Assembly: GCA_965203465.1 (NCBI GenBank)
Contig: CBDBCR010000003.1
Coordinates: forward strand, 192,001-256,000
Direction of reading: 5' to 3'
DNA length: 64,000 bases
Source of the DNA: Nitrosopumilaceae archaeon
GTDB taxonomy: Archaea; Thermoproteota; Nitrososphaeria; Nitrososphaerales; Nitrosopumilaceae
Made by a program: the position numbers and the translations under genes. Shown here one piece after another: positions 7,902-54,649 of this stretch. The notes under the pieces are model-generated. The model had not been told where the DNA came from, ran no database searches, and saw only the letters and a program-made list of their open reading frames with translations. The first letter of the stretch is position 1. Each line of letters opens with the position of its first letter.

Positions 7902-9239
7902 TTACGCGCCGTCTCTGCTTCCCGCGAACGGCACGCCCCTTGCGGTCTCGCATATGCAGCCCGCCCTCGCCTTGGGGCTGTCCGATATTGCGAACCCGTC
8001 CTTGATCTCCACCAGCTGGCGCGAATCGGGGTTTTCGCCTAATGCTTCCAGCATTCCGATCAGCTTGTTCACCGCCATGCTGGCGGCCATGGTGGTGAGC
8101 GATACGATGCTGGGCTGAGCTTCGAGCCCGTCATAGTATCCTTCGTTTGCAAGCCGCGTCCGCTCTCGGGCGGTCAGCGACTCTTGCAGGATCACGCGCC
8201 CGTCCAGCGTTCCGGTGCACCACAGGCACGGCCCGTCGGGCGTCACTGCCTGTACCTTGGCAACTGCCTGTAGCACGCCTCCCCCGTCTGCCATGTGGAT
8301 TCTGCACCCGACGTCGATCAGAGGCACCAAGTACCTGTGGGATACCTCGTTCAAAACGCACCTGCTAGTCAGGTTGTCGGTGCATGCGAACATGACATCG
8401 GACTCTATCAACGCGCCCCTCATGGCCACCGTCGACGCGTCGGCGCACACCGCCTCCACGTTACACTCTGAAAATGACGAGATGTGCTCCCCCACCACGA
8501 CTGACTTGGGCCTGCCCACGTCGGCGTCGGTCGCCCCGTACACCCGGGGCAGGTTGGTCGGATCCACAGAATCCATGTCTATCAGCCTCAACCGGCCCAC
8601 CCCCATCCGTGCAAGCTGCACGGCCACCGACGAGCCGGTGCCCCCGGCGCCGACCACCGTGACAGCCAGATCCCGCAGCTGCGATTGGGCGAGCCGCCCC
8701 AGCGCCCGCGCCTGCCGGTCGAACTTTGCAGGAGAGTCTCCGCACATGCCGGAGGGGCGTGCCAGCGTTTCGCCTGCGGCCCTTATGCGATCAACCTGAC
8801 AAAACTCGCCGTCCGCGTCGCGCACCACGCCGCGCGCATCCTCCATGCCGAACACGAGGCTGCCCAGCGGCCTGTCCGGCAGTATATGGCCCAGGTTTTC
8901 GAGTAGGCGAACGTTGGACTCTTGGTCGATTTTGCCGAACTCGGCGCGGCGAGAGCTCGGATGGGTGTGCGCGAAAACCAGCCCAAGGCCCCCCTCGTCG
9001 GCCCTCATCGCGCATCGGTTCACGAACGACGAGTTGGGCTCGAGTTCCACGCTCGACGCCCTGTTCCACGAGCCCGCTTCCGGTTCCAGAATTTCCGCCA
9101 CCAGCAGGCCGGCAGACTTTTGCGTGCGGTAGTGTCGCACCAGCAGAAAGCACCCGTTCTCGCGAGGGGCCGTAGAAAACAGCAACCTGCGCAGATCGCG
9201 GTACAGTTTGCCCGGAAACGCCACTGTCCACACGGTCAA
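7902..9239 (-). CDS. JAB/MPN peptidase-like domain fused to ThiF/E1-like adenylating enzyme
   Basis: N-term ENGCF...AHTHP...FGKID (JAB E/H/H/D). C-term VVGAGGTG, IDMDSVDPTNLPR, CLWC and CIC Zn motifs. TTG start overlaps upstream TGA (TTGA). Confidence 0.85.
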   Translation of the reverse strand: MTVWTVAFPGKLYRDLRRLLFSTAPRENGCFLLVRHYRTQKSAGLLVAEILEPEAGSWNRASSVELEPNSSFVNRCAMRADEGGLGLVFAHTHPSSRRAEFGKIDQESNVRLLENLGHILPDRPLGSLVFGMEDARGVVRDADGEFCQVDRIRAAGETLARPSGMCGDSPAKFDRQARALGRLAQSQLRDLAVTVVGAGGTGSSVAVQLARMGVGRLRLIDMDSVDPTNLPRVYGATDADVGRPKSVVVGEHISSFSECNVEAVCADASTVAMRGALIESDVMFACTDNLTSRCVLNEVSHRYLVPLIDVGCRIHMADGGGVLQAVAKVQAVTPDGPCLWCTGTLDGRVILQESLTARERTRLANEGYYDGLEAQPSIVSLTTMAASMAVNKLIGMLEALGENPDSRQLVEIKDGFAISDSPKARAGCICETARGVPFAGSRDGA

Positions 9240-9624
9240 TCCTCCCCCGGTAGCCTCTGCTGCACGTACGCTACGAACCCCGCAATGTCGCCGCGCGACG
9301 GGTTCCATCCGCGCTCTCTATAAGTGGAGTAGCTGAACCTGCGCCATGCTCGTCCCAGGCGTGATTCTTCCACCTCGCCCCCCGCGGGAATTTGGCCATC
9401 GCGCAATGCAAGAGACGTATCTGCCCAAAACACGCCAAACCCGGCCTGCTGGCAATAGGGCGTAGTAAACACCATTACGCGGCCACATCCATGTTGTGCG
9501 TTCCTTTAGGTACCGGGAAGTCTCGGAATGCGACGTAGGTTTTTGCGTTGCGTTCTGTGACAAACGTACCAAATCTACTCTTTTGCAGGACGGCCAAATC
9601 GCTGTCCAGATCGTGTGGGATCAA
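9236..9624 (-). pseudogene. Prokaryotic E2 (family E-like) conjugating enzyme, single frameshift near 9478-9481
   Basis: TTG9624 gives MIPHDLDSDLAVLQKSRFGTFVTERNAKTYVAFRDFPVPKGTHNMDVAA*. The shifted frame continues VMVFTTPYCQQAGFGVFWADTSLALRDGQIP...GRAWRRFSY...WNPSRGDIAGFVAYVQQRL, a pattern typical of Prok-E2_E. Confidence 0.65.
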
Positions 9625-9842
9625 CCGTACGGCACGCTCTTTAGTATGGCATTACATTGCATGCCGCACTCTATAGTCACAGCGGCATCGGGTGCCAGTT
9701 TTTCGGCGTCCCGTCCACTCATCTTAAACAGGTCGTATTCGTCTGGTGTTAAGCCGGCCAATTCGAGTACCCGCCTTCCTTGTAGCGGGCCCTCATCAAC
9801 ACGGATCTCTTGCTTGTTGACCCGAATCACGCAAGTCGCCAT
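9621..9842 (-). CDS. Ubiquitin-like (multi-ubiquitin/beta-grasp) protein ending in Gly
   Basis: MATCVIRVNKQEIRVDEGPLQGRRVLELAGLTPDEYDLF...VPYG*, resembling the Multi_ubiq pattern. First gene of the E2/JAB-E1 operon; TTAAAT box ~24 nt upstream. Confidence 0.75.
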   Translation of the reverse strand: MATCVIRVNKQEIRVDEGPLQGRRVLELAGLTPDEYDLFKMSGRDAEKLAPDAAVTIECGMQCNAILKSVPYG

Positions 9843-10244
9843 GCCCCTGTGCATGCAGGGTATGATTTAAGGGCATCTCACTTAACAAGGTTAATCGCGT
9901 GAACAAGATCAATAAAGTAAAGATGCGCCAAGCCGCGGACAACACTGGGATCCACGTAGCCCCGGCAGGCTGCGATGTCAAGAGGGCGTCCGATCCGCTG
10001 ATGGCCACGCATGCCGATGCCCTGTCGTGCACGTGCGTGACAACTATGCCACCGCCAAGTTTCTAGACGTGGTTTGCCGAGAACCAAATCTACGTCAACG
10101 TATCCACGGGCAGAGATCACCGCGATAGCCGGATGCCGTCGTGCATGGCGTGGTGCGCAGCGCCGTATTACGCGCCCTCGTATCAGAACAGATCCGTCTC
10201 CAGACACGAGAAGTCATGCGTAATTACTCTCAGTTCGCGTATCC

Positions 10245-10495
10245 ATGCCTAGAAAACGCGAACATGGGCATTTACGCATGACTTCTACGGAGTACGTAAT
10301 GGGGCTATTCTGGCGATCATTGAAAAATCGCCTCCCCTTCTGCATGTCAGGCAGGCATGAAACGGAATCTTCCATGACCGGCAGAATAGATCCAATGGAA
10401 GAGCGGAAGTTCGTCTCTGAAGGCCAGCGGGCGCAGAAGCGAAGTGCGGGTTACCGAGCAGGGCAAAAAAGCGCTCAAAATATTCGGCACATCGT
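10245..10495 (+). pseudogene. Possible decayed winged-helix regulator
   Basis: Fragments in different frames: MEERKFVSEG... and VTEQGKKALKIFGTS*, resembling the wHTH 'T.KG..L' wing motif. Confidence 0.25.
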
Positions 10496-10817
10496 AGAGT
10501 GTGCGCTCTGCGCCAGACGGGTTTACCAGACACGTTGGCCGGTTGTGCGATGCCAGTGAAGGTATCTGGTAGCCCAACACGTCACGTTATGCGTGACTGC
10601 CGACATTCTGACAGAGGCGGCGTTTTGCGTGTCGAGTTCATGCGCTTGCCTCCGATCAGGCAATTCCGGCAACTCCCGGCCGCCCCTGCGAGCCAGCATT
10701 TCCGGCAATGCGCTTTTCGACTGCGAGACGTTCGGTGAACGCGTCGTCTGCCACGGCCAGACATCCCGCGTCGTAGTGGCAAGAGCGTTGCGCACGTGCC
10801 TCTGCCGCCTGCCGCGT

Positions 10818-11312
10818 TCAGGCCCGCCCTATCTTCTTTTTGTAGTACGCTTTGGTCTCTTCGTCAGGAATGACGGTGTGAAACGCGCGCGGTCTGTAGT
10901 GCTTCTTCCACGGAGTGTCGCTTGCGTGGGTGAGCGCTATGAGGCGGTTGCCGGACAGTTTTCCGTAGACGTCTATGACGGCGTCCAGTATCTCGCGCCT
11001 TTTTTCGTCTATCCTGCTCTTGAAAAAGTCCAACCGGTCTCCGAATTCAGGCTTGCCAAACGCCGTGCCGCAGTATTCCAACGACTGGATGGGATCCGAT
11101 TCGTGGTCTCTCAGCGCGAAATACAGCGACGGAAATACCGGCCCGTACCTCCACGCCTGGGCCTTTTCCCTGACCAGAGGCACGTCGAGCGCCGCCAGCG
11201 AGTACCCGTGGGCGATGTACGCCGTTTTGATTACTTGGAGCGAGGTCACGCTTGCCTTGCTGTTCGCTATTATGTAGTCGGCAACAAGCAACGCCGAATA
11301 ACCCCCGTCCAT
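10818..11312 (-). CDS. Panacea/SocA (DUF4065) antitoxin-domain protein
   Basis: VADYII...TSLQVIKTAYIAHG...AQAWRYGPVFPSLY...LIALTHASDTPW...IPDEETKAYY. Confidence 0.85.
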   Translation of the reverse strand: MDGGYSALLVADYIIANSKASVTSLQVIKTAYIAHGYSLAALDVPLVREKAQAWRYGPVFPSLYFALRDHESDPIQSLEYCGTAFGKPEFGDRLDFFKSRIDEKRREILDAVIDVYGKLSGNRLIALTHASDTPWKKHYRPRAFHTVIPDEETKAYYKKKIGRA

Positions 11313-11533
11313 CGTGCATCTGCACAAAAGCCCGTATTAAAAGATGGTTCGGCAGGTTTTGTTCGGTAGCTGGCGGCTGGTGCCTGCGCTAGGCGGCTTC
11401 CCGTCTGATCGGCTTTCCCCAGATGCCGAACCCGGTTGCGCGGCGGCACGCCCAGGAAAAGCTGCATGCCCGACGGTCTGGCCGGCCGCCCCGACTGCGG
11501 ACAGCATTGCGGATCTGTCGGCGTCCCGTCCGC

Positions 11534-22149: not shown

Positions 22150-22393
22150 CCAACGTGCCGCGGGGCGAGGCTCGGCGCTGCCTCGCAGGCACGGCACCGT
22201 CGGGGGCGGACGGGCCGGCCCTGTTGCCGAAAACGCGGCGCGTGTGACTATGGCGCGAGGCGACCCCCGCCACGAGCGGGGTCGGGCAGCCAACTGCCGG
22301 AAAACGGTTAGTCGTTCAACCCAGGACGCAGGGCCGTTGCCGACGCCAAGTCGCGCTTTCCGCCAGAAAATCAGGCACGGAGGACGCAGGGTA

Positions 22394-22493
22394 ACGCGAG
22401 GCGATCCGTGCCGCACTGGGTTGGGCACCCGATTCCGATGGAAGGTACAGTTTGTGTAAAGTAGTGACGCGAGGCGATCCGTGCCGCACTGGG
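22394..22493. repeat. 27-bp direct repeat pair with 46-bp spacer
   Basis: ACGCGAGGCGATCCGTGCCGCACTGGG at 22394-22420 and 22467-22493. Confidence 0.85.
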
Positions 22494-22546
22494 CAACTAG
22501 GAAAATAAAGTGCCAAATAAGTCCCCGCCGAGCCTCAGAACAACAC

Positions 22547-22891
22547 ATGGAACAGATGGTTTTTACCAAGGGCAGAACTGACAATATTCAGGTACAGACA
22601 GACAGTGCCAACTCTACGCACCGGTTGACGTTCGATGGCGACGAATGGAACGCCGTCGCCGTTTTTGAAAAAAAATGGAATCCCGCACACAACACGCCGT
22701 TGCACATCCCCGAACCCGTACGAGTGATAAAAGAGAACGGGGTAGAAGAGATGCGATACAACAGCTCCGCGATGGAGCTAGGCAGGATCTACCAAGTGTT
22801 GTGGAACGGAAAGATGTACGGACTGCGAAAGACAGAGGGCGAGGTGGAGATTCTAAGGTTTTATCCGGACGATCATAAACATGGGGATTAG
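22547..22891 (+). CDS. Hypothetical protein (AT-rich islet)
   Basis: MEQMVFTKGRTDNIQVQ..., protein-like composition with codon usage unlike the flanks. Confidence 0.55.
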   Translation: MEQMVFTKGRTDNIQVQTDSANSTHRLTFDGDEWNAVAVFEKKWNPAHNTPLHIPEPVRVIKENGVEEMRYNSSAMELGRIYQVLWNGKMYGLRKTEGEVEILRFYPDDHKHGD

Positions 22892-23039
22892 GGGCAGGTT
22901 CGGCTTGATCGAAGGAGCATACAAGAAAGAAGCGGCCTCCCTCTTGGTCTCGAAACCGTGCGAGCACGTCTTGTTAATAAAAGAGCGTGCGTTCAAAAAG
23001 GACATCTTGGTGATCATGCACGGCAAGGCCGACGGGTAA
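22881..23039 (+). CDS. Small hypothetical protein (52 aa, possibly truncated)
   Basis: MGIRGRFGLIEGAYKKEAASLLVSKPCEHVLLIKERAFKKDILVIMHGKADG*, overlapping the upstream stop. Confidence 0.35.
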   Translation: MGIRGRFGLIEGAYKKEAASLLVSKPCEHVLLIKERAFKKDILVIMHGKADG

Positions 23040-23080
23040 GCAAGCGTCACGGAGCATTTGATAGGGAGCGGGGTGAGCAG

Positions 23081-23541
23081 GTGACAAGGTTGGATCTAGA
23101 AGGAATAGTCGGCGACATCGAAAAAATGGGGTATGTGACCGTGGAGCTCAAGGACAGGTTGAAGCCCAGTTTTTACAAGCTTGGCGATGGCACGGTGGTG
23201 CGAGTGCTGATCAGCATCAACCACCTCACAAGCCACACCAAATCTCCACATGGATACAACATCAGCTGGAGCAGCGCGATAACGTGCCAAAAGAAAACAG
23301 ACATCCTGAGAGATACACGCAGTTTGATCCGGCCAGCGTGCAATCCAACATATTGGACGACGATATGCAGTACGAGACACTTGTAGAGAATTTCAACAAC
23401 TACTCGATAAACAACGGTATGACGGTGAGCGTCAAACCCGCAGTAACGCAAGTGGGTAAAACCAGATTTTGCACAGAAGACGGCGAGCTGATCTACGGAG
23501 TGAACGTCATGCCCGTGTTCAAGGTCACCAAGGGCGGCTAG
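23081..23541 (+). pseudogene. Frameshifted hypothetical protein with internally duplicated beta-rich domain
   Basis: YKLGDGTVVRV in the first frame and YSINNGMTVSVKP in the second; frames join near 23284. Confidence 0.5.
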
Positions 23542-32075: not shown

Positions 32076-33547
32076 TAGAATACGCTTTCCTCGCGGGGCG
32101 CTGGTCGGGCAGGCGCGTGGCCGTGTCGGTGGGCGGCAACGGGCCGCCCGCGTCGCGGGCCGGCGCCGTCGCGCTGCCCTCCGAGGAATCGTACCCCGGC
32201 GCGGAACCGGACAGGCGCAGGCAGGCGCGCGCGGCCCTGTGGCAGGAGGCTGTCAGGCAGCGCCACTGCGCCGAGTTCCAGGGGGGCGAGCACGCCTTCG
32301 GGTTCATACTCAACGCCATGGAGGCCAGCAGGTGCGAGGCGCTCGGCCTGCGCGAGTGGCGCGGCATGGCGGGCGAGGCCGCGTTCGCGCGCGCCTGGGA
32401 AGGGGCGCGCAGGCCCGGCGTGGAATCGTTCTACGGGCGCGCAAGGATGGTCGAGGCGTTCTACCAGGCGTTCCGGTTCGGCCGCGTCCGCGGGCGCATG
32501 CAGCCGAGCCACCTCGAGAGGGCGCACGAAGCGGCGCGCCTGGCGCGCGAGGCCATAGACGAATCCCTGCAAGCGGGCCTTGGCACGCCGCACGTAAAGT
32601 CGCGCGTGCCCACGATCATAAAGGCGCTGGGCATAGACCCGCTGCTGAGCGTGCCGGCCGTGCCGCTGATCCCCAAAAGTGGCATGGCCCTCGACGAGCG
32701 CGATCTGCGGCGCGAGCTTGAAAGGGACGGCCTCGAGAGCCCCGACAGGGCCGGCGAGATCATGCGCGCGGGGGGCGCCGGCGAGGCGGCCGAGCCGGCG
32801 GGCGGCGACGGGGAGGTCTCGGAAGGGGTAGAGGTGCCCGGCCCCGGCGGCGACGGCGAGCTGATACGCGACGCCGACCTGGTGGCCAGGCTCAAATCGA
32901 GGTTCAGGCGCCTGCGCTTCGGCTGGCGCGAGGCGCAGGGGGCCTCGGGCGACGAGTTCGACGGCGACGGGTACATCGACGGGTCGGGCCCGTTCCTGTC
33001 CGATTCCAGGGCGGCCGTAAAGTCCAACGTGATGGTGCTGCTTGACCACTCGTCGAGCATCGCGGACTGGCAGTCAGAGTACAAAAAGGCCACGCTGGCG
33101 CTGTGCGAGCTGCTCGCGTACGTGCGCGCGCGCTTTTCGGCCTACGCGTTCGGCGCGCGCGGCAGGGAGACGGTCTGCTGGCTCGTAAAGCCGGGCGGGG
33201 CGCGGTGGGGGCGCCTGCACGCGGACAGGCTGGCGCGCGTCTCGGCTTCCGGCTCCACGCCGCTCGCCGAGGTTTACGGCAGGATGATGCCGGCCCTGCA
33301 GTCGGCGAGGCCCGACGTGCTGATCACGCTGACGGACGGCGAGCCGTCCGACGCGGCGGCCGCTCGCTCGGCCATCAGGGCCATAAGGAGGCTGGGCGTG
33401 AGGGCCTCGGCCGTCGGCCTCGGGCCCGACACGGTCAGGGCCACGGCCATCGCGCTCAACCTGGGCGGGCTCGGCTACGAGAGGGCCGTCGCGGTCAGCC
33501 GCCTGCAGGAGCTGCCCGGCAGGGTCATGTCGCTCTTGGACAGGTGA
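32072..33547 (+). CDS. von Willebrand factor A domain protein (CbbO/NorD-like partner)
   Basis: MIDAS LLDHSSS, GSTPL, LTDGEP. ATGA-coupled to the AAA gene. Confidence 0.85.
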   Translation: MIEYAFLAGRWSGRRVAVSVGGNGPPASRAGAVALPSEESYPGAEPDRRRQARAALWQEAVRQRHCAEFQGGEHAFGFILNAMEASRCEALGLREWRGMAGEAAFARAWEGARRPGVESFYGRARMVEAFYQAFRFGRVRGRMQPSHLERAHEAARLAREAIDESLQAGLGTPHVKSRVPTIIKALGIDPLLSVPAVPLIPKSGMALDERDLRRELERDGLESPDRAGEIMRAGGAGEAAEPAGGDGEVSEGVEVPGPGGDGELIRDADLVARLKSRFRRLRFGWREAQGASGDEFDGDGYIDGSGPFLSDSRAAVKSNVMVLLDHSSSIADWQSEYKKATLALCELLAYVRARFSAYAFGARGRETVCWLVKPGGARWGRLHADRLARVSASGSTPLAEVYGRMMPALQSARPDVLITLTDGEPSDAAAARSAIRAIRRLGVRASAVGLGPDTVRATAIALNLGGLGYERAVAVSRLQELPGRVMSLLDR

Positions 33548-33719
33548 GCGGGCCGCCGGTCGGGCCGCGCCCGCCGCCGGGCGCATGTCTTCCGATCGGC
33601 CAAGCCCCCGCATTCTAGACGCATGTGCGTGCGAGGCCAAGCCGAGCCTGCTTTGGCAGACACCCGTACAGCCGGGTGATCGTGTGGTTAATAAGGGAGT
33701 TGCTGGCCTCCCGAGGACA

Positions 33720-34085
33720 TGGCTACGGAATCAAGCGTTGAAGACATCGTCTTTGACGACGGAGAGAGAATCGAAATCGCCTGTTCGTATCCCGACGCCG
33801 AAACTGCCATAAAGGCGCTCCATGGATTTGTAGGAGAGGGGAATGAATAGGAAATTCATTTCTTTTTCTTTGGACTTCAAAAAGCAGTACACAAACAGAG
33901 ACAAGAGAGTTCGTAATGAAATTGACGACATTGTTAGGGGCTTGACAGAAATCGTAAGACATGTCATAAAAAAGGAGCTCCCGTTCAAAAAGATGAAGAT
34001 CACGCTACGCATAAAGTCATCCAAGGAAGTGCTGAGCGTGATAGTTATGCCAGTCCCCAGAATCATAATACGGCGCATCGAATAG
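33720..34085 (+). pseudogene. AT-rich hypothetical gene, probably frameshifted near 33840
   Basis: MATESSVEDIVFDDGERIEIACSYPDAETAIKALHGFVGEGNE* overlaps MNRKFISFSLDF... in another frame. Confidence 0.35.
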
Positions 34086-34517
34086 GATGCCCGGCGTCGG
34101 GGACGCAAATTTGAGGATGTGCGCAGGCCAAACGCGCAGTCGCGTGCGTCCATGTCGTTGATGTTCGTTTACGCGCGTTTTGTGTACGTTCTGTCGGTCG
34201 TGAAAGATTTAACCCGCGCCCGTCTTGGCAACGTGCAGGGCAAAATCTTCACCCCTCTCCAACAGGTCCGGGCTTGTTTACACTCGGCAAGCACAAGGTG
34301 CGATTGAACAGGGTTGCAACCCGCACGGATTTTCCGAAACCGGATGCAGGTTCCTAGCAGTTGGAGTGACCCGGCGGCACCGGCGGGCTAGGCCGCACGC
34401 ATGACGAATGCGCCGTTTTTTGCCACGTCAAGGCCCGCCGTCATGGATCGCCCGCCGGCCGGACTTTGGTTAACCGCCTCAAGAAACAGTTAAGAGGGCG
34501 CCCCCGGAGGTGGTCGC

Positions 34518-49529: not shown

Positions 49530-49902
49530 CGCCGCCCGGCGGCCCCCGCGCTGATTAATTGCTTTCGAGGCGGCGGGATTCGACCCGGCCGAAGGCGCCC
49601 GAGGCGGCGCCAGCTTGCGGGAGCGCCCGTCTGCGGGCGCGCTAGGACGGATCGCCGACTGACCTTGGCGCTACGATGCGGTTGATCGGACGCGCGCGAT
49701 GGGTTGGTAAAACACTGGGTTTGGCCGATCCTCAGCCACAGAGTGGCAGAGATGGCAGGACAACAAGATGCACGAATCGTGTCTTTGATCGTCCTCGTAT
49801 GGACCAAGACATGCCAGAGACAGGACAAGTATGCGCAGTCCCGAACGACCAATCGAGAGCATATGCCAGATAGTATAAAAGGCGCCGCGTCGAGCGCGTT
49901 GT

Positions 49903-50439
49903 GTGAACTCTGGCCCAGACATCTACGCATTGGTCAGTTTGGGCGCATCCGTCGCAACAATCTTGACTGTCGCGGTATCTGCGATCAAGTATTTTAGGAA
50001 CAAAAAAGCAGAAGAAAGCAGAGCGTCAGAGAATCTGTATCTGGAACTTAGAGATGTGCTAGATGGGTTGAATGTCGATAAGTTTCCTGAAAATTTCTGC
50101 GAGGCAGGCATAGATGATTATACAGGCAAAAAGAAAAAGGTGTGTTTTATGGCCAGAACCCTCAACCACGATTTTTACGACAGTCTGATCTACTCTGGAG
50201 GGATCAACTTTCTGGATCCGGCACTCCAGCAACAGGTTCAAGACGCCTTCAAACGAATCAAAACACACAACAAATACGTGGACACCGTGCTAGAGATATC
50301 AGATCATAATAATAGCACCATACCGGTTCGTGCATACAGATATTGTGAATGGATAGAGAATACTGAAAAAATCCTACAAAAAGAGCTTCCAAAAATATTG
50401 AAAAAGTTACAGATCCGCTTTAAGGCGAATCGTCAGTAG
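49903..50439 (+). CDS. AT-rich hypothetical protein with N-terminal membrane anchor
   Basis: 178-aa ORF with TM helix then Lys/Asn-rich domain. TATAAAA ~24 nt upstream. Confidence 0.65.
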   Translation: MNSGPDIYALVSLGASVATILTVAVSAIKYFRNKKAEESRASENLYLELRDVLDGLNVDKFPENFCEAGIDDYTGKKKKVCFMARTLNHDFYDSLIYSGGINFLDPALQQQVQDAFKRIKTHNKYVDTVLEISDHNNSTIPVRAYRYCEWIENTEKILQKELPKILKKLQIRFKANRQ

Positions 50440-50730
50440 ACTTTGGCTTGCCCATTCTTAGCACATTGTGTGCAGTCGAGTTGGTCTGCCGTACGGGCGG
50501 CATTTCTTGGCTTCCGTACAAAGGTCTTTCTTCAGAGTTCCGATCAGTTTTTTCCGGCATGCTTGACGTTATAGCACGATGTATTTAAACATAAGTCGTC
50601 ACAAATGGTCGCCTTTTTAAGCAGGTCTGCCAGATTCCCCCGATCCCGCGGCCGGCCCGTTCCGGCATCGCGCGCGCCCGCCGGCAGGAACCCGGCAAGA
50701 GCCAAATAGCGGAGGGCGCCCACGGCGGGC

Positions 50731-50940
50731 GTGAAGATACTCTGCCCCAAATGCCTCAAATCTGCAGAGCTCGCGCCGGACTTTTCGTCGGTGTGCTGCA
50801 CCGAGTGCGGCCTGGACATGGGGTACGGCGAGTACGTGAGGTACGTGGCCCACAACAACCCAAAGTATTCGGACATACTGGGCGACTATGCGGGCAGCAC
50901 CGAGGGGCAGTCTGCCGGCACGCTGGACGAGTGGGACTGA
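50731..50940 (+). CDS. Small Zn-ribbon protein
   Basis: CPKC...CTECG, 69 aa. Confidence 0.7.
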   Translation: MKILCPKCLKSAELAPDFSSVCCTECGLDMGYGEYVRYVAHNNPKYSDILGDYAGSTEGQSAGTLDEWD

Positions 50941-51928: not shown

Positions 51929-51961
51929 AATTAATACGGGCCGCGCGGCCGCGCGGGGAGG

Positions 51962-52543
51962 TTGGCAGAGACCGTCCCGTGCTCCGAGGCCGGGATCGAG
52001 AAGGCGCGCGGCGCGGTCGCGGGCGGCGGGGCGATCGTGTTCCCCACCGACACCGTCTACGGGCTGGGCTGCGATCCGTACAACCCGGCCGCGGTCGAAA
52101 AGGTGTACAGTATCAAGAACAGGCCCCGATCGAAGGGCCTGCCGGTGCTCGGCCTGCGGGCCCGCATCGAGGAGATCGCGGCCGTCGACGGCGTTGCGGC
52201 CCGGCTCGCGGAAAGGTTCTGGCCCGGCCCCGTCACGCTGGTCGTGCCGCTGCGCGATCCGAGGCTTGCCTGCACGCTCGGTTCCCGTACCGTGGCCGTG
52301 CGCGAGCCGTCGGGAAGATGCGCGCAGGCCGTGCTCGTGGCCTGCGGCCTGCTGGTCGGCACTAGCGCCAACGCCTCGGGCATGCCGGCGCCGGGTTCGG
52401 CCTCCGAGTGCGCGCTGGAGGGCCACGATCTTCTCATAGACGGCGGCCCGGCCGGCGGGGAGCCCTCCACGGTGGCAGACTGCACCAGCGGCAAGATACT
52501 GCGGCGCGGCGCTTCCGCAAAAGAGGTCGAGCGCATGCTTTGA
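51962..52543 (+). CDS. sua5: L-threonylcarbamoyladenylate synthase (Sua5/TsaC)
   Basis: FPTDTVYGLG, IKNRP, FWPGPVT, TSANASG, PSTV. Confidence 0.92.
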   Translation: MAETVPCSEAGIEKARGAVAGGGAIVFPTDTVYGLGCDPYNPAAVEKVYSIKNRPRSKGLPVLGLRARIEEIAAVDGVAARLAERFWPGPVTLVVPLRDPRLACTLGSRTVAVREPSGRCAQAVLVACGLLVGTSANASGMPAPGSASECALEGHDLLIDGGPAGGEPSTVADCTSGKILRRGASAKEVERML

Positions 52544-53061
52544 ACGTCATAGTCACGTGCCCGCGCCGCTTCGAGCCCGAGGCCGGCCAAGAGGCCTCGC
52601 GCATGCTCGCAAAGTCCGGCATCGGCGTCAGCCGCGTGGAGGCGACGGGCATGCCCGGCATACTCGTGCTGCAGGCAGACTCGGATCCGGTCAGAGCCGT
52701 GGCCGCCATGGCCGAGGCCGTGGCCGACGAGCCCTGGTCTGCCAGGTACGTGCAGAGGGCCATACCCGTGCAGGAGAGCGTGCCTGCCGGCGAGCAGGAG
52801 ATAGTGGGCGCGGCCGTGCGCCTCGCCTCCCGCATAGGGCCCGGCAGCGCGTACAGGGTCACGGTCGAAAAGCGCCGCACGTCCCTGTCGGCGCGCGCCC
52901 TCATATCCGGCATAGCCGGGGAGCTGGACAGGAAAGTCAGCCTGGACGAGCCCGACTACGTGGTGATGGTCCAGATACTCGGCCCCGAGGCGGGCGTCTC
53001 GGTGATAAGGCCCGGCGACGTGCTGCGCACGGCCCTGGCCAAAATGTCAGAGGACAGCTGA
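52540..53061 (+). CDS. THUMP domain RNA-binding protein
   Basis: MNVIVTCPRRFE...YRVTVEKR...KVSLDEPDYVVMVQILG. Confidence 0.85.
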   Translation: MNVIVTCPRRFEPEAGQEASRMLAKSGIGVSRVEATGMPGILVLQADSDPVRAVAAMAEAVADEPWSARYVQRAIPVQESVPAGEQEIVGAAVRLASRIGPGSAYRVTVEKRRTSLSARALISGIAGELDRKVSLDEPDYVVMVQILGPEAGVSVIRPGDVLRTALAKMSEDS

Positions 53062-53817
53062 CAGCTCGGCAAGCGAATCTTCGAGCGGCGTGCTCGACGA
53101 GGCGGCCCCCAGGTGCCTGCGCGTTATGCCGAACCTGCGCCGCAGGTAGGCGCCGGCCGAGCGCGAGTACCCGCAGTCGCGCATCCCCGATCGTTGGAGG
53201 CCCGCCGAAAGCCCGTCTAGGTCGCGCCCGCGCCCCAGCGCGACCAGCACGAACCCGCTACCCGGCTTTACGCCGGCCTCGCTTATGGCGCGCGAGATCT
53301 GCGTCGTGATGGCAAAGCGCAGCAGCATCTCGGTCTCCAGCCTTTCCGAGATCATGGTCCCGCGCCGCTCCGCCTCGGCTGCCAGCAGCAGGATCTTGCG
53401 CAGGTGGCCGCCGCCCAGCACCATCATGGAGCGGACCGCCTGCAGGCGCAGGCGCGGGTGCTCCAGGCGCAGCCGGTCCAGGAACTCGGGCCCCAGCCGG
53501 GCCCGCCCGCTCACGCAGATCCAGAGCGCGCCGTATTTTCCGACCGGCGCGCGCGAGCCGCCGTGCACCACCGGTATGACCGCCACGTCGTCGCCCGGCG
53601 CGACGGGGCACTCGGGGCCCCCGCGCGCGGACGAATCCGCGCCGTTGACGGCCACGAGAACCGACGAAGAATCCACGCGCGCGCCCGACTTGCGCATGCC
53701 CTCCAGGCGCTCCAGCAGTTCCCCGACAGTCCGGGGCGCCGGATCTACTGTCACGGTCTCGGATCCGAACGCCGCCCGGGCGCCGCCCAAGAGGCGCACG
53801 CGCAGCTCAGGGCTCAT
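53047..53817 (-). CDS. MoaD/ThiS (SAMP-like) ubiquitin-fold domain fused to KEOPS subunit Cgi121
   Basis: LVAVNG...GDDVAVIPVVHGG followed in frame by ...ETEMLLRFAITTQISRAISEAG (Cgi121 motif). Confidence 0.8.
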   Translation of the reverse strand: MSPELRVRLLGGARAAFGSETVTVDPAPRTVGELLERLEGMRKSGARVDSSSVLVAVNGADSSARGGPECPVAPGDDVAVIPVVHGGSRAPVGKYGALWICVSGRARLGPEFLDRLRLEHPRLRLQAVRSMMVLGGGHLRKILLLAAEAERRGTMISERLETEMLLRFAITTQISRAISEAGVKPGSGFVLVALGRGRDLDGLSAGLQRSGMRDCGYSRSAGAYLRRRFGITRRHLGAASSSTPLEDSLAELSAVL

Positions 53818-54649
53818 CCGCCGGGGCCTCTGGTTCGGGCTCGCGGGTCTTGCAAAACTGCTCGGCGTCGACGATCGAGAGCGTCCCGCCCGTCTCCTCC
53901 GAGGCGCGCTGCGCAAAGGCCAGCAGGTTGCCGTCGCCCGAGACTATCGTCACGCGCGAGGATTCGGACTGCTTCATGGCCGCCGCGAGCAGGTCCCTGT
54001 CGGCCGCGGCGGCCGCGTACAGGCGCTCCAGATCCTGGTCCTTGTCCTGGCCGCTCATCGACTTTAGCTCCAGCCACCGCCCGGCCTGCTCGGATTCTGC
54101 GTCGTCTAGCGCAGACCTGTGCATGTCTTCGGCCTTTTTGAGGTGGGCCGCGCCGGGCCTGAGCCTCGTGAACAGGCCCTTGCGCCCCTCGAATATGGCC
54201 GACAGTATAGAGCGCAGCTCCGAGGGCGGCACGCGGTCGCGCAGGTCCGAGTGCGCCGCCATCCACACCTCGAGCTCTTCGCACACGGTGTCCGGTATCG
54301 TTATGCGCCTGCCGGCGCCGGCGGCCGGATCGGCCAGGGCCACCGGGCGGCCCGAGACGTGGTCGAGCACGGGGCCGTGGAGCACGTCGGCGTCGAGTAT
54401 CACGAGCGTCTCGCGCGCGGCCGACTTTGCCCTGGCCGCCTGGCTGCGCTCCTGCTCTTCGGATTCCTTCTGGCGCCGCAGCTCGCGCCTGACCATGCGC
54501 GTGATGAGGCCGGCCATGCAGTTGCGCAGCTTTTTGGATCTGATCACCGAGACCTGCTGCAGCGCCTTTTTGTTGTCGGCAAAGTCGCCGCCAAACTCGG
54601 AGCGGTGCCCCTCGAGCACCTCCTCGCAGAGGCGCCGAACCCTGTTCAA
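53807..54649 (-). CDS. rps17e: 30S ribosomal protein eS17 fused to C-terminal PIN domain
   Basis: FGGDFADNKKALQQVSVIRSKKLRNCMAGLITR (eS17), then VILDADVL, IPDTVCEEL, ADRDLL, IVSGDGNL (PIN). TTG start overlaps the TatD stop. Confidence 0.8.
   Translation of the reverse strand: MNRVRRLCEEVLEGHRSEFGGDFADNKKALQQVSVIRSKKLRNCMAGLITRMVRRELRRQKESEEQERSQAARAKSAARETLVILDADVLHGPVLDHVSGRPVALADPAAGAGRRITIPDTVCEELEVWMAAHSDLRDRVPPSELRSILSAIFEGRKGLFTRLRPGAAHLKKAEDMHRSALDDAESEQAGRWLELKSMSGQDKDQDLERLYAAAAADRDLLAAAMKQSESSRVTIVSGDGNLLAFAQRASEETGGTLSIVDAEQFCKTREPEPEAPADEP

Follow-up and report, generated by a model that had tools for sequence, protein, structure and literature searches.

The present locus is best compared with the Bub operons, which are described as bacterial and were collected via searches for DUF6527 (Ye, Gong, Chambers, Corbett; PMC11601596; statements on this work refer to its main text and Table S1). 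Type I Bub (6E.1) is exemplified by BubA, BubB, BubCD, and BubE of a Citrobacter sp., and BubE was reported to be present in all Bub operons. When Ser and His of the Citrobacter E2 were mutated, both residues being changed together, conjugation was abolished; BubCD incubated in vitro without the E2 gave rise to a Ubl adduct that depended on ATP and was deemed off-pathway by the authors. According to the same authors, protection from phage by Bub was not demonstrated. The text presents the Ubl of Type I as fused to the E2, whereas the Type I rows of Table S1 give separate gene ids for Ubl and E2. As for archaea, the only mention in the main text is that of a Pyrococcus peptidase structure; Table S1 contains an entry from Ca. 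Nitrosopumilus, which is assigned to Type II Bub (PMC11601596).

The operon analyzed here resides in a stretch of 64,000 nucleotides (the window) and likely belongs to an archaeal branch of the Type I Bub-like systems, as a copy that was acquired laterally and is now decaying. Its genes for a Ubl, an E2, and a JAB-E1 fusion are all encoded on the minus strand, and both the Ubl/E2 and the E2/E1 junction consist of a TTGA overlap. A TATA-like box (TTAAAT; 9865..9870, minus strand), the first base of which lies 28 nt upstream of the Ubl start codon (ATG at 9842), is the putative promoter; at least 12 host genes in the window have A/T-only hexamers starting 28–31 nt before their candidate start codons, a comparable spacing. 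The DNA is richer in AT than its surroundings, with a GC content of 0.53–0.56 across about 9250–10750, where the window as a whole averages 0.672 (sd 0.053), and the same is seen at third codon positions (GC3 of 0.57 for the Ubl, 0.58 and 0.65 for the E2 fragments, and 0.79 for the E1, versus 0.87–0.91 for neighboring host genes). The host is archaeal; the neighbors of the operon include genes for FBPase_3, HMG-CoA reductase, geranylgeranyl reductase, and NurA/HerA. The overlaps, the box at host-like spacing, the AT-richer DNA, and the archaeal host had all been part of the original prediction, and each of them was borne out. No tRNA gene was found at the borders of the island within the window, nor were there convincing flanking repeats. 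When synteny with four genomes of the same genus was checked for an insertion, the FTR1-like neighbor was not found in them, and their DegT matches were only about 30% identical.

The first gene (9621..9842, minus strand) encodes a Ubl of 73 aa when translated from the ATG at 9842, or of 77 aa from an alternative ATG at 9854, and its C-terminus reads NAILKSVPYG. It matches Pfam Multi_ubiq with 30.1 bits (cut-off 24.5; E=5.7e-7). The small ORF had been proposed to encode a 73-aa Ubl ending in VPYG, which is correct, and its AlphaFold2 model indeed adopts a beta-grasp fold (mean pLDDT 85.3). Foldseek placed Citrobacter BubA (9ea8_B; TMq 0.77) among the top matches of the model, next to 8u38 and 9d5b, two multi-ubiquitin proteins of bacteria (TMq 0.79). 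None of the seven conserved columns of the family is changed in the window Ubl, and the same C-terminus is kept in relatives at 59–85% identity. PADLOC returned no match for the Ubl.

The last gene (7902..9239, minus strand, TTG start) encodes a BubCD-like protein of 445 aa in which a JAB/JAMM peptidase is fused to an E1 adenylation domain. The adenylation part is evident from Pfam ThiF (E=2.1e-36), whereas Prok-JAB is matched only weakly, with 14.7 bits against a cut-off of 25. The best solved match is Citrobacter BubCD (9ea4; E=1.6e-28), to which residues 11–407 align end to end, and the presumed JAB-ThiF fusion is thereby corroborated; at the level of ThiF, the protein is also weakly similar to Cap2 (7tsq; E=5e-6), and the matches from PADLOC were confined to the ThiF part and were of a generic E1-E2 kind. 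The metal site of the JAB domain, the adenylation residues, and the crossover-loop Tyr are all kept (E27, H91, H93, D105; GxGGxG; R232; CxxC and CxC; Tyr368). Among 41 E1s of the family, E27, H91, D105, G367, and Y368 are invariant, and H93 is present in at least 90%. As had been read from the sequence earlier, the crossover loop, that is, the stretch between CLWC and QPS, contains no Cys and carries a GYY motif; by residue count, Y368 aligns with the catalytic Tyr of Citrobacter BubCD. The protein deviates at 4 of 133 conserved columns, compared with 0–8 in close relatives, and the few strain variants that contigs of other sequencing runs contained in the E1 were about half synonymous.

The E2 gene lying between these two is interrupted. 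An N-terminal fragment of 49 aa (9475..9624, minus strand) starts with the TTG that overlaps the Ubl stop codon, aligns with residues 1–49 of intact E2s, and ends at a TAA created by the frame break; it has no match in Pfam. The C-terminal fragment of 79 aa (9236..9475, minus strand, ATG start), which is in a different frame, matches Prok-E2_E with 29.3 bits (cut-off 25; E=7.8e-7) but covers only positions 55–120 of the 123 of the profile. The two ORFs meet at TAATG; the gene is one base short, and one residue is lost. TAATG is a typical signal for stop/start coupling, so the two pieces could both be made and might reassemble. Thus, the E2-like nature of the gene is supported by the Prok-E2_E match, whereas its interruption had only been implied in the original prediction, which spoke of frameshift repair. 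PADLOC matched neither of the fragments, and a word-index search with the 79-aa fragment recovered its own ORF alone, whereas an exhaustive HMMER search recovered 41 further relatives. Short E2-like representatives (62–109 aa) were considered as parallels of the split but rejected, being N-terminally truncated calls that keep Asp and His.

The C-terminal fragment retains the conserved Ser (RRFSYS) that had been noted at this position. Together with the Tyr in the E1 loop, the occurrence of Ser instead of Cys in the E2 agrees, as far as residues can tell, with the Cys-independent chemistry that had been proposed. The partners of this Ser are gone: the active-site Asp is replaced by Gly and the His by Ser, although the aligned intact E2s have Asp in 24 of 24 cases and His in 23 of 24, and both motifs are present in all 16 further metagenome E2s and in the five nearest representatives. 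Overall, the window E2 deviates at three of nine conserved columns, one of them being a lost Pro, whereas 21 of the 25 other rows deviate at none.

Assembly errors most commonly take the form of a single-base difference, and the composition of the region is atypical, so the frame break could be an assembly or sequencing artifact, or the whole segment could be bacterial contamination or a chimera. Runs X3, X4, and X5, which stem from three other studies, contain contigs that span at least 9416–9647 without gaps at the break and carry the same break, and it is therefore not an assembly error. The Asp, His, and Pro substitutions are, moreover, independent of the frame, the flanking genes and the closest relatives of all three proteins are archaeal, and the promoter spacing is that of host genes. 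An artifact or contaminant is accordingly highly improbable, and bacterial contamination, which had been named as one of the conditions that could overturn the assignment, is largely refuted. Strain variants among the contigs of other runs were very few in this part of the operon, namely a synonymous change in the N-terminal E2 fragment and a non-synonymous one each in the C-terminal fragment and the Ubl.

That the same arrangement of frames occurs in three other studies can also be taken to mean that it is stably carried. The operon might then be a working, minimal Cys-independent system, which makes its E2 as two pieces (49 and 79 aa) via re-initiation at TAATG, or via ribosomal frameshifting, and which relies on Ser alone. 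The overlap at the break, the single missing residue, the retained Ser of RRFSY, and the intact Ubl, E1, and promoter fit such a view, but it has to accommodate Gly and Ser at the near-invariant Asp and His sites, the lost Pro, the failure of the Citrobacter Ser/His double mutant to conjugate (PMC11601596), and a neighboring regulator that is clearly a pseudogene (see below), which indicates relaxed constraint on the locus. We consider it unlikely. A working conjugation system, as originally predicted, is therefore doubtful for the window copy, the E2 being frameshifted and lacking Asp and His, and the regulator being degraded.

The relatives of the operon were surveyed across archaeal genomes, as had been suggested, and related cassettes were found in Nitrosopumilaceae/Nitrososphaeria, Thermoplasmata, and Bathyarchaeia records. 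Of 31 related loci in genome contigs, 10 are archaeal, with identities of 45–57%, and 21 are bacterial, with identities of only 27–36%. In the E1 tree, the window protein groups with seven archaeal rows (SH-aLRT 82), and this group is nested in a clade with a support of 98 that also holds two paralogues from the same genome. Alignment queries of genome and metagenome contigs returned no relative closer than 57%, and single-protein locus scans found nothing; relatives of the Ubl and the E1 at about 80–85% identity are full length, the closest proteins being E1s at 76–83% and Ubls at 84–85%. Because the nearest relatives are archaeal, the immediate source of the operon is an archaeal lineage rather than bacteria, and, judged by its sequence, the operon is a genuine Bub-type system of that lineage. 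The notion of a horizontally acquired operon of bacterial type thus holds for its lateral origin and not for its bacterial source. Lateral origin is indicated by the lower GC3 and the sporadic distribution: in a sample of 401 genomes of the phylum, Prok-E2_E occurs in 3, and among 41 relatives, 3 have the E1.

The intact archaeal cassette consists of a divergent regulator with an HFX_2341_N (CARF-like) domain and a winged helix-turn-helix (wHTH), followed by Ubl, Prok-E2_E, and JAB-E1 genes with stop/start overlaps, and it contains no BubE/DUF6527. Order and orientation in the window match those of L006/L010, L012–L015, L019, and 13 metagenome loci. The regulator is present at six of the seven archaeal genome loci with flanks and at 13 of 20 metagenome loci, and an E2 at every examined locus with upstream sequence. 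A TIR-type gene follows the E1 in L010, L012, L014, L015, and L019, and a deaminase gene in L013; many intact relatives also have no recognizable effector. The intact E2 of L006 matches Citrobacter BubB with E=1.8e-8, and across this match and that of the window E1 to BubCD, the residues Tyr, Ser, His, and Asp line up. In the part of the literature covered, which includes the main text and Table S1 of the Bub paper, no description of a BubE-less archaeal cassette was found.

In the window, the regulator, like the E2, is present only as a broken gene. The pseudogene (9923..10494, plus strand) derives from a divergent HFX_2341_N/Csa3-like and winged-helix regulator and was located by tblastn and by a regulator profile. 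With the regulator of L006 as the query, tblastn matched 9935–10177, with an in-frame stop inside, and 10417–10488, where 16 of 24 residues are identical. A profile built from six regulators matched three collinear, stop-delimited pieces (E=0.0057, 4.7e-8, and 7.9e-9; the next best piece of the window had E=2), which together recover only about 95 of the 247 profile positions. Credible remnants of the TIR, deaminase, and AAA genes of relatives were not found in the window (tblastn, E ≥ 0.17). The lack of an effector is in itself no sign of decay because many intact relatives are without one as well. DUF6527 (BubE) was likewise not detected in the ORFs around the operon, and the only one recovered when the whole genome was searched in six frames lies on another contig, inside a Type II Bub operon.

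Type I Bub is the closest of the known systems. The window operon has in common with it a Multi_ubiq beta-grasp Ubl ending in Gly, an E2 of the Prok-E2_E/BubB type in which Ser replaces the Cys of other E2s, a JAB-E1 fusion whose crossover loop has an invariant Tyr and no Cys, and Ubl and E2 as separate genes, as in the Type I rows of Table S1 (PMC11601596). The window has separate ORFs with a TTGA overlap, and, given the separate gene ids in Table S1, fusion of Ubl and E2 may not be a defining property of Type I Bub. The differences are that neither the window operon nor the archaeal cassette contains BubE/DUF6527; that the archaeal regulator is CARF-like/wHTH instead of CapW, CapH and CapP, or CapK and CapS; that TIR or deaminase genes occur in the archaeal relatives, whose E1s form an archaeal clade; and that the E2 in the window is split and without His and Asp, whereas Type I E2s have an invariant Ser, His, and Asp according to the same source. 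Type II Bub (6E.2), consisting of BubA, the E2-E1 fusion BubBD, and BubE, shares the Ubl family and the Tyr/Ser logic (PMC11601596), but the window has a separate E2 gene, a JAB domain fused to the E1, and no DUF6527.

The original prediction had likened the operon to bacterial Bub/Bil systems, which is apt for Type I Bub, given the Ubl/Prok-E2_E/JAB-E1 set and the BubCD match, but less so for Bil (bacterial ISG15-like), which makes a poor comparison. Bil has the same set of Ubl, E2, JAB, and E1, and an antiviral role (PMC11601596), but its JAB protein is separate, its chemistry proceeds via thioesters, its E1 has tandem adenylation domains and a Cys domain, and its E2 uses Cys; in the window, one adenylation domain is fused to the JAB, the E1 loop contains no Cys, and the E2 has Ser in the active site. 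Type II CBASS with Cap2 and Cap3 likewise attaches E1/E2/JAB-type machinery to a defense effector, but there the E2 and E1 are fused in Cap2, which uses Cys chemistry to conjugate the cyclase itself, and no free Ubl is present (PMC11601596). The window operon shares with SAMP/UbaA the archaeal host, a beta-grasp modifier, and a ThiF-type E1, and is distinguished by its Prok-E2_E gene, its fused JAB, a Ubl ending in Tyr-Gly, and the missing loop Cys. The SAMP systems are not known to use an E2; they have modifiers with a C-terminal Gly-Gly, separate JAMM proteases, and an E1 with an active-site Cys.

The 2.26-Mb genome contains four Bub-type loci. Besides the window operon, these are two intact paralogous operons and one canonical operon of Type II Bub (G000:C1, about 730–733 kb), in which Multi_ubiq is followed by DUF6791-ThiF and this by DUF6527. 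A further alternative is that Ubl and JAB-E1 of the window are kept for a role that does not need their own E2, be it direct transfer from the E1, use of a paralogous E2, or a carrier-type role. In its favor, family-conserved residues are kept in Ubl and E1 but not in the E2, the C-terminus of the Ubl is conserved in relatives, whose E1s are full length, two intact E2s of this family are encoded elsewhere in the genome, and Citrobacter BubCD forms its (off-pathway) adduct without an E2 (PMC11601596). Cross-use is, however, not expected, as the paralogous E1s are only 38–41% identical to the window E1 and the paralogous E2s only 34% identical to the E2 of L006, a member of the clade of the window operon; no E2-less operon was seen among the examined loci, and recent inactivation would explain an intact Ubl and E1 equally well. 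Such a role is thus rather improbable.

By homology, the intact cassette would be controlled by its divergent CARF-like/wHTH regulator. Its JAB-E1 would adenylate the C-terminal Gly of the Ubl and take the Ubl onto the crossover-loop Tyr as an oxyester, from where it would be passed to the Ser of the Prok-E2_E enzyme, assisted by His and Asp. The latter enzyme would then attach the Ubl to targets, and the JAB domain would trim or remove it. In several relatives, the TIR or deaminase protein is the presumed effector of an antiviral or conflict response. We infer oxyester intermediates and a function against viruses from homology; the antiviral role considered plausible in the original prediction is at least in keeping with the conflict-system context of the relatives (TIR, deaminase, and CARF-like regulator).

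The window copy, which we regard as decaying, departs from this scheme in several parts: Ubl, promoter, and JAB-E1 look intact, the E2 is split, the regulator is reduced to fragments, and neither an effector nor BubE is present. As the E2 is one base short and the Asp and His partners are gone, transfer of the Ubl via the operon's own E2 is most likely lost or badly impaired. The function is probably carried by the two intact paralogous operons together with the Type II Bub operon. Selection may still act on Ubl and E1 because the relatives at about 80–85% identity are full length, and a dead operon would not predict an intact Ubl and E1 unless the inactivation was recent. The catalytic Ser of the E2 is kept, and the Ubl and E1 columns show no decay, both of which run counter to a decaying operon. 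If the copy were alive, Ubl and JAB-E1 would be under selection in marine or sponge-associated thaumarchaea without the need for a catalytically complete E2, and the operon would be a domesticated derivative of an archaeal Bub-type defense cassette that has dispensed with regulator and effector, which we regard as doubtful. The Ubl may in that case be transferred directly from the Tyr of the E1, via a two-piece, Ser-only E2, or via an E2 borrowed from a paralogous operon.

One thaumarchaeal Type II Bub operon was already known from Table S1 (PMC11601596). The present analysis reveals a distinct archaeal branch of Type I that lacks BubE and is paired with a CARF-like/wHTH regulator; a gene for a TIR or deaminase protein often comes next. 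If the archaeal cassettes work as their residues suggest, Ubl conjugation via Tyr/Ser oxyesters would not be confined to bacteria, and in archaea it would be linked to classical immune effector domains, which would bear on the connection of ubiquitin-type signaling with immunity before eukaryotes arose. The window copy, although less exciting than the family it belongs to, can serve as a natural experiment on which components of such a system go first.

On the minus strand of the window, the Ubl gene extends from an ATG at 9842 (alternatively 9854) to a stop at 9621 and encodes 73 (or 77) amino acids ending ...NAILKSVPYG; its product matched Pfam Multi_ubiq with 30.1 bits (curated cut-off, 24.5). 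It is followed by an ORF of 49 aa (9624-9475), which starts with TTG within a TTGA overlap with the Ubl TGA and had no Pfam match, and, in another frame and beginning at TAATG, by one of 79 aa (9475-9236), which matched Prok-E2_E over no more than the C-terminal half of the profile (positions 55-120 of 123; 29.3 versus 25 bits). The JAB-E1 gene (9239-7902; 445 aa), again with a TTG start within a TTGA overlap, here with the TGA of the 79-aa ORF, encodes a strong ThiF domain (E = 2.1e-36) and matched Prok-JAB weakly in Pfam. The first base of a TTAAAT box (9870-9865, minus strand) lies 28 nt before the ATG at 9842. At least 12 host genes in the window, among them those for FBPase, an FTR1-like protein, geranylgeranyl reductase, adenine deaminase, and OMP decarboxylase, have A/T-only hexamers starting 28-31 nt before candidate start codons, and the spacing of the TTAAAT box would fit leaderless archaeal transcription from a TATA box. 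GC content between ∼9250 and 10750 is 0.53-0.56 (window mean, 0.672), and GC3 is 0.57 for Ubl, 0.58 and 0.65 for the E2 pieces, and 0.79 for E1, versus 0.87-0.91 for flanking host genes. All that the original prediction had read from the DNA itself was present, that is, the ORFs, the TTGA overlaps, the TTAAAT spacing, the AT-richer DNA, and the Cys-free loop after CLWC. The same AT-richer patch holds a gene for a SocA/Panacea antitoxin-domain protein (10818-11327, minus strand; E = 9e-17), preceded at about 30 nt by an A/T box of its own; a neighboring gene for a toxin partner was not recognized. Three other low-GC patches of the window (about 22250-23500, 33500-34500, and 49750-50750; GC 0.43-0.57 vs a mean of 0.67) hold ORFs without Pfam matches and may be further acquired islands.

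Among all solved structures, the 445-aa protein best matched BubCD from Citrobacter (9ea4; E = 1.6e-28), the JAB-E1 protein of the bacterial Ubl conjugation system Bub, over residues 11-407, covering both the JAB and the E1 part. All 41 aligned family members share E27, H91, and D105 of the JAMM site, and at least 90% have H93; also invariant are GxGGxG, R232, two Cys pairs (CxxC and CxC), and G367-Y368. R232 aligned with the adenylation Arg of the Citrobacter protein, and Y368 falls on its catalytic Tyr, by a manual residue count assuming a two-residue tag offset between chain and published numbering. Beyond CLWC, the rest of the E1 loop is free of Cys. The intact E2 of an archaeal relative (locus L006) matched Citrobacter BubB (E = 1.8e-8), its FD, S, and H aligning to the Asp, Ser, and His named as active-site residues of BubB (PMC11601596). 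A model of the Ubl, built with 15 aligned sequences, is a confident beta-grasp (mean pLDDT 85.3); its best structural matches were the bacterial multi-ubiquitin proteins 8u38 and 9d5b (TMq 0.79) and Citrobacter BubA (9ea8_B; TMq 0.77), with ubiquitin and NEDD8 ranking behind these. The system of the window is of the Bub Type I kind.

Bacterial contamination as the source of such an operon was rejected. Archaeal-type genes (FBPase_3, HMG-CoA reductase, geranylgeranyl reductase, mevalonate-type GHMP kinase, and NurA/HerA) occur across the 64 kb, the window lies within contig 3 of a 2.26-Mb genome (4 contigs, estimated 96.9% complete), the same stretch is present in contigs from runs of several studies, and the proteins of locus L006 (from G006, a family-level relative) are 100% identical to those of L010, the same locus in a record whose title reads Thaumarchaeota archaeon. 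The operon segment belongs to an archaeal host and is no contaminant; the Ubl is a beta-grasp and the E2 family matches BubB, and none of the outcomes named beforehand as refuting the original prediction was observed. Elsewhere in the window, a ThiS-family Ubl domain is encoded in a 298-aa frame (53047-53943, minus strand) near a Sua5/YrdC gene (51935-52543, plus strand), an arrangement reminiscent of the t6A/KEOPS-linked Ubl fusions described in marine Thaumarchaeota (PMC2948915).

The genome harbors two more complete Ubl/E2/JAB-E1 operons, L002 (G000:C1:882203-886480) and L003 (G000:C1:376923-381215; followed by an AAA_15/AAA_21 ATPase), whose genes are intact and whose E1s are 41% and 38% identical to that of the window and 65% to each other. 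Their E2s (128-130 aa) are intact and read WSIH, and the C-termini of their Ubls (GR and GA) carry one residue beyond the Gly, which implies processing by the JAB domain. Upstream of both operons lie genes for a conserved 85-92-aa protein and a 112-114-aa membrane protein, to which no function was assigned. A canonical Type II Bub operon (loci L005 and L009; G000:C1 about 729800-733300) encodes a Multi_ubiq Ubl (81 aa), a DUF6791-ThiF E2-E1 fusion (400 aa), and DUF6527/BubE (133 aa), and adjoins a Type ISP restriction C-terminal domain protein (fragment) and a GMT-wHTH protein.

A pattern scan with one genome per species returned 31 loci, 10 archaeal by title (45-57% identity; Nitrosopumilus, Nitrosopumilaceae, Nitrosotenuis, Nitrososphaeria, Thaumarchaeota, Thermoplasmata, and Bathyarchaeia) and 21 bacterial (27-36%). 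A quick maximum-likelihood tree was built from 29 E1s and rooted on the Type II BubBD of the genome; because of long branches and composition warnings, it was used for coarse groupings only. In it, the window grouped with seven full-length archaeal rows (SH-aLRT 82), nested in a clade (98) with the two paralogues and one Flavobacteriaceae row; 14 bacterial rows formed a separate clade (97). The latter share a layout of WYL regulator, unfused Ubl, Prok-E2_E, JAB-E1, a 500-560-aa TCAD9/APH kinase-like protein, and DUF6527 (e.g., L025, L037, L028, and L020); no description of it was met in the portion of the Bub literature examined. In a Flavobacteriaceae operon without BubE, Ubl (L018:2524-3120) carries two fused DUF1508 (YegP-like) repeats; PMC13373217 names a YegP homologue among genes associated with CapK/CapS.

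DUF6527 is absent from the archaeal loci. A divergently transcribed regulator, consisting of HFX_2341_N (Csa3/CARF-like Rossmann) and a DUF6293_C winged helix, is present in six of the seven archaeal loci with flanks, and TIR_2 directly follows E1 in five (L010, L012, where the contig end cuts it, L014, L015, and L019). These TIR_2 proteins (265-277 aa, domain C-terminal) are mutually homologous, although some Pfam scores are under the cut-off. L013 has a deaminase in place of TIR, and L011 has nothing after E1. Among 20 further metagenome loci (44-57% identity), the regulator is found in 13 and E2 in 16, and no downstream effector was recognizable. Because of this gene content across archaeal and metagenome loci, the conserved core is regulator, Ubl, E2, and JAB-E1, with a variable effector. 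Distribution is rare and patchy: E1 is present in 3 of 41 related genomes and Prok-E2_E in 3 of 401 sampled across the phylum, all three within the family of the window. A Nitrosopumilus sp. chromosome retains only a 92-residue E1 remnant (L031:3501-3776; 57% identical), adjoining a nucleotidyltransferase-like and HEPN-like gene pair; it looks like another decayed copy. In one metagenome locus (L060:2708-2989), the open E2 frame covers profile positions 47-127 only, missing the N-terminal third but keeping Asp and Ser-x-His.

At the regulator site upstream of the window operon, a profile of six regulators found only fragments, at 9866-10063 (E = 0.0057), 10067-10249 (E = 4.7e-8), and 10390-10494 (E = 7.9e-9), collinear, separated by stops and frame changes, and together accounting for about 95 of the 247 positions of the profile; nothing else in the window scored better than E = 2. 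Inside this decayed region lies a perfect 15-nt inverted repeat (10209-10223 and 10272-10286, with 48 nt between the arms), and a 5-nt deletion polymorphism at 9913, between Ubl and regulator, occurs in contigs from runs X3 and X4 of other studies.

Taken together, the two E2 ORFs cover the full length of intact E2s (127-135 aa) in alignment, apart from a single residue lost at the junction, where the DNA reads ...GCC GCG TAA in one frame and ...GTA ATG GTG in the other; given this frame switch, the gene is one base short of open reading. An assembly slip was rejected, since in three other studies, contigs of one run each span the junction gap-free, so the frame break is a property of the population (a fourth run matched perfectly and may be the source). 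The Asp of the FD/PD motif, present in all 24 intact E2s, is Gly in the window; the His of S-x-H, present in 23 (Lys in the other), is Ser; and a conserved Pro is Gln. Three of nine conserved E2 columns are changed, compared with none in 21 of 25 other rows. All 16 metagenome E2s, and likewise the five nearest representatives in an exhaustive HMMER search (the nearest 51% identical), read FDMFW and RRFSYH. In E1, 4 of 133 conserved columns are changed (close relatives, 0-8), one being the JAMM S-x-x-D Ser (to Gly), and in Ubl, 0 of 7; Ubl relatives (59-85% identity) keep ...KSVPYG, except the most distant (...KSVLFG). Two less likely readings, a two-piece, Ser-only E2 that works and use of Ubl and E1 without an E2, draw what support they have from the undamaged Ubl and E1 and from TAATG at the junction. 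The evidence is explained most economically by lateral acquisition of an archaeal Bub-type cassette that is now being lost, its regulator gone and its E2 inactivated, with Ubl and E1 so far without visible damage.

By analogy with the Citrobacter work, E1 of an intact system would adenylate Ubl and hold it as a Tyr oxyester; Ubl would then be passed on as a Ser oxyester on E2 and transferred to a target, with JAB for processing or removal. The TIR, deaminase, and CARF-like partners and the patchy distribution suggest, by context, an immune role; phage protection is undemonstrated for Bub according to its authors.

As far as its sequence goes, the window locus appears to match the working parts of Type I Bub, but differs in lacking BubE and in an E2 without His and Asp whose gene is not intact. 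The text of the Bub paper describes Ubl as fused to E2, yet its table gives Ubl and E2 of Type I as separate genes (PMC11601596), so the unfused Ubl here may not set the locus apart. The same table has a Type II row for Ca. Nitrosopumilus, so archaeal occurrence of Bub as such is already implicit there. The part of the literature that was searched held no description of a BubE-less archaeal branch with regulator and TIR/deaminase partners. We regard the BubE-less archaeal clade as a variant of Bub, and the window copy as a degenerate member of this clade.
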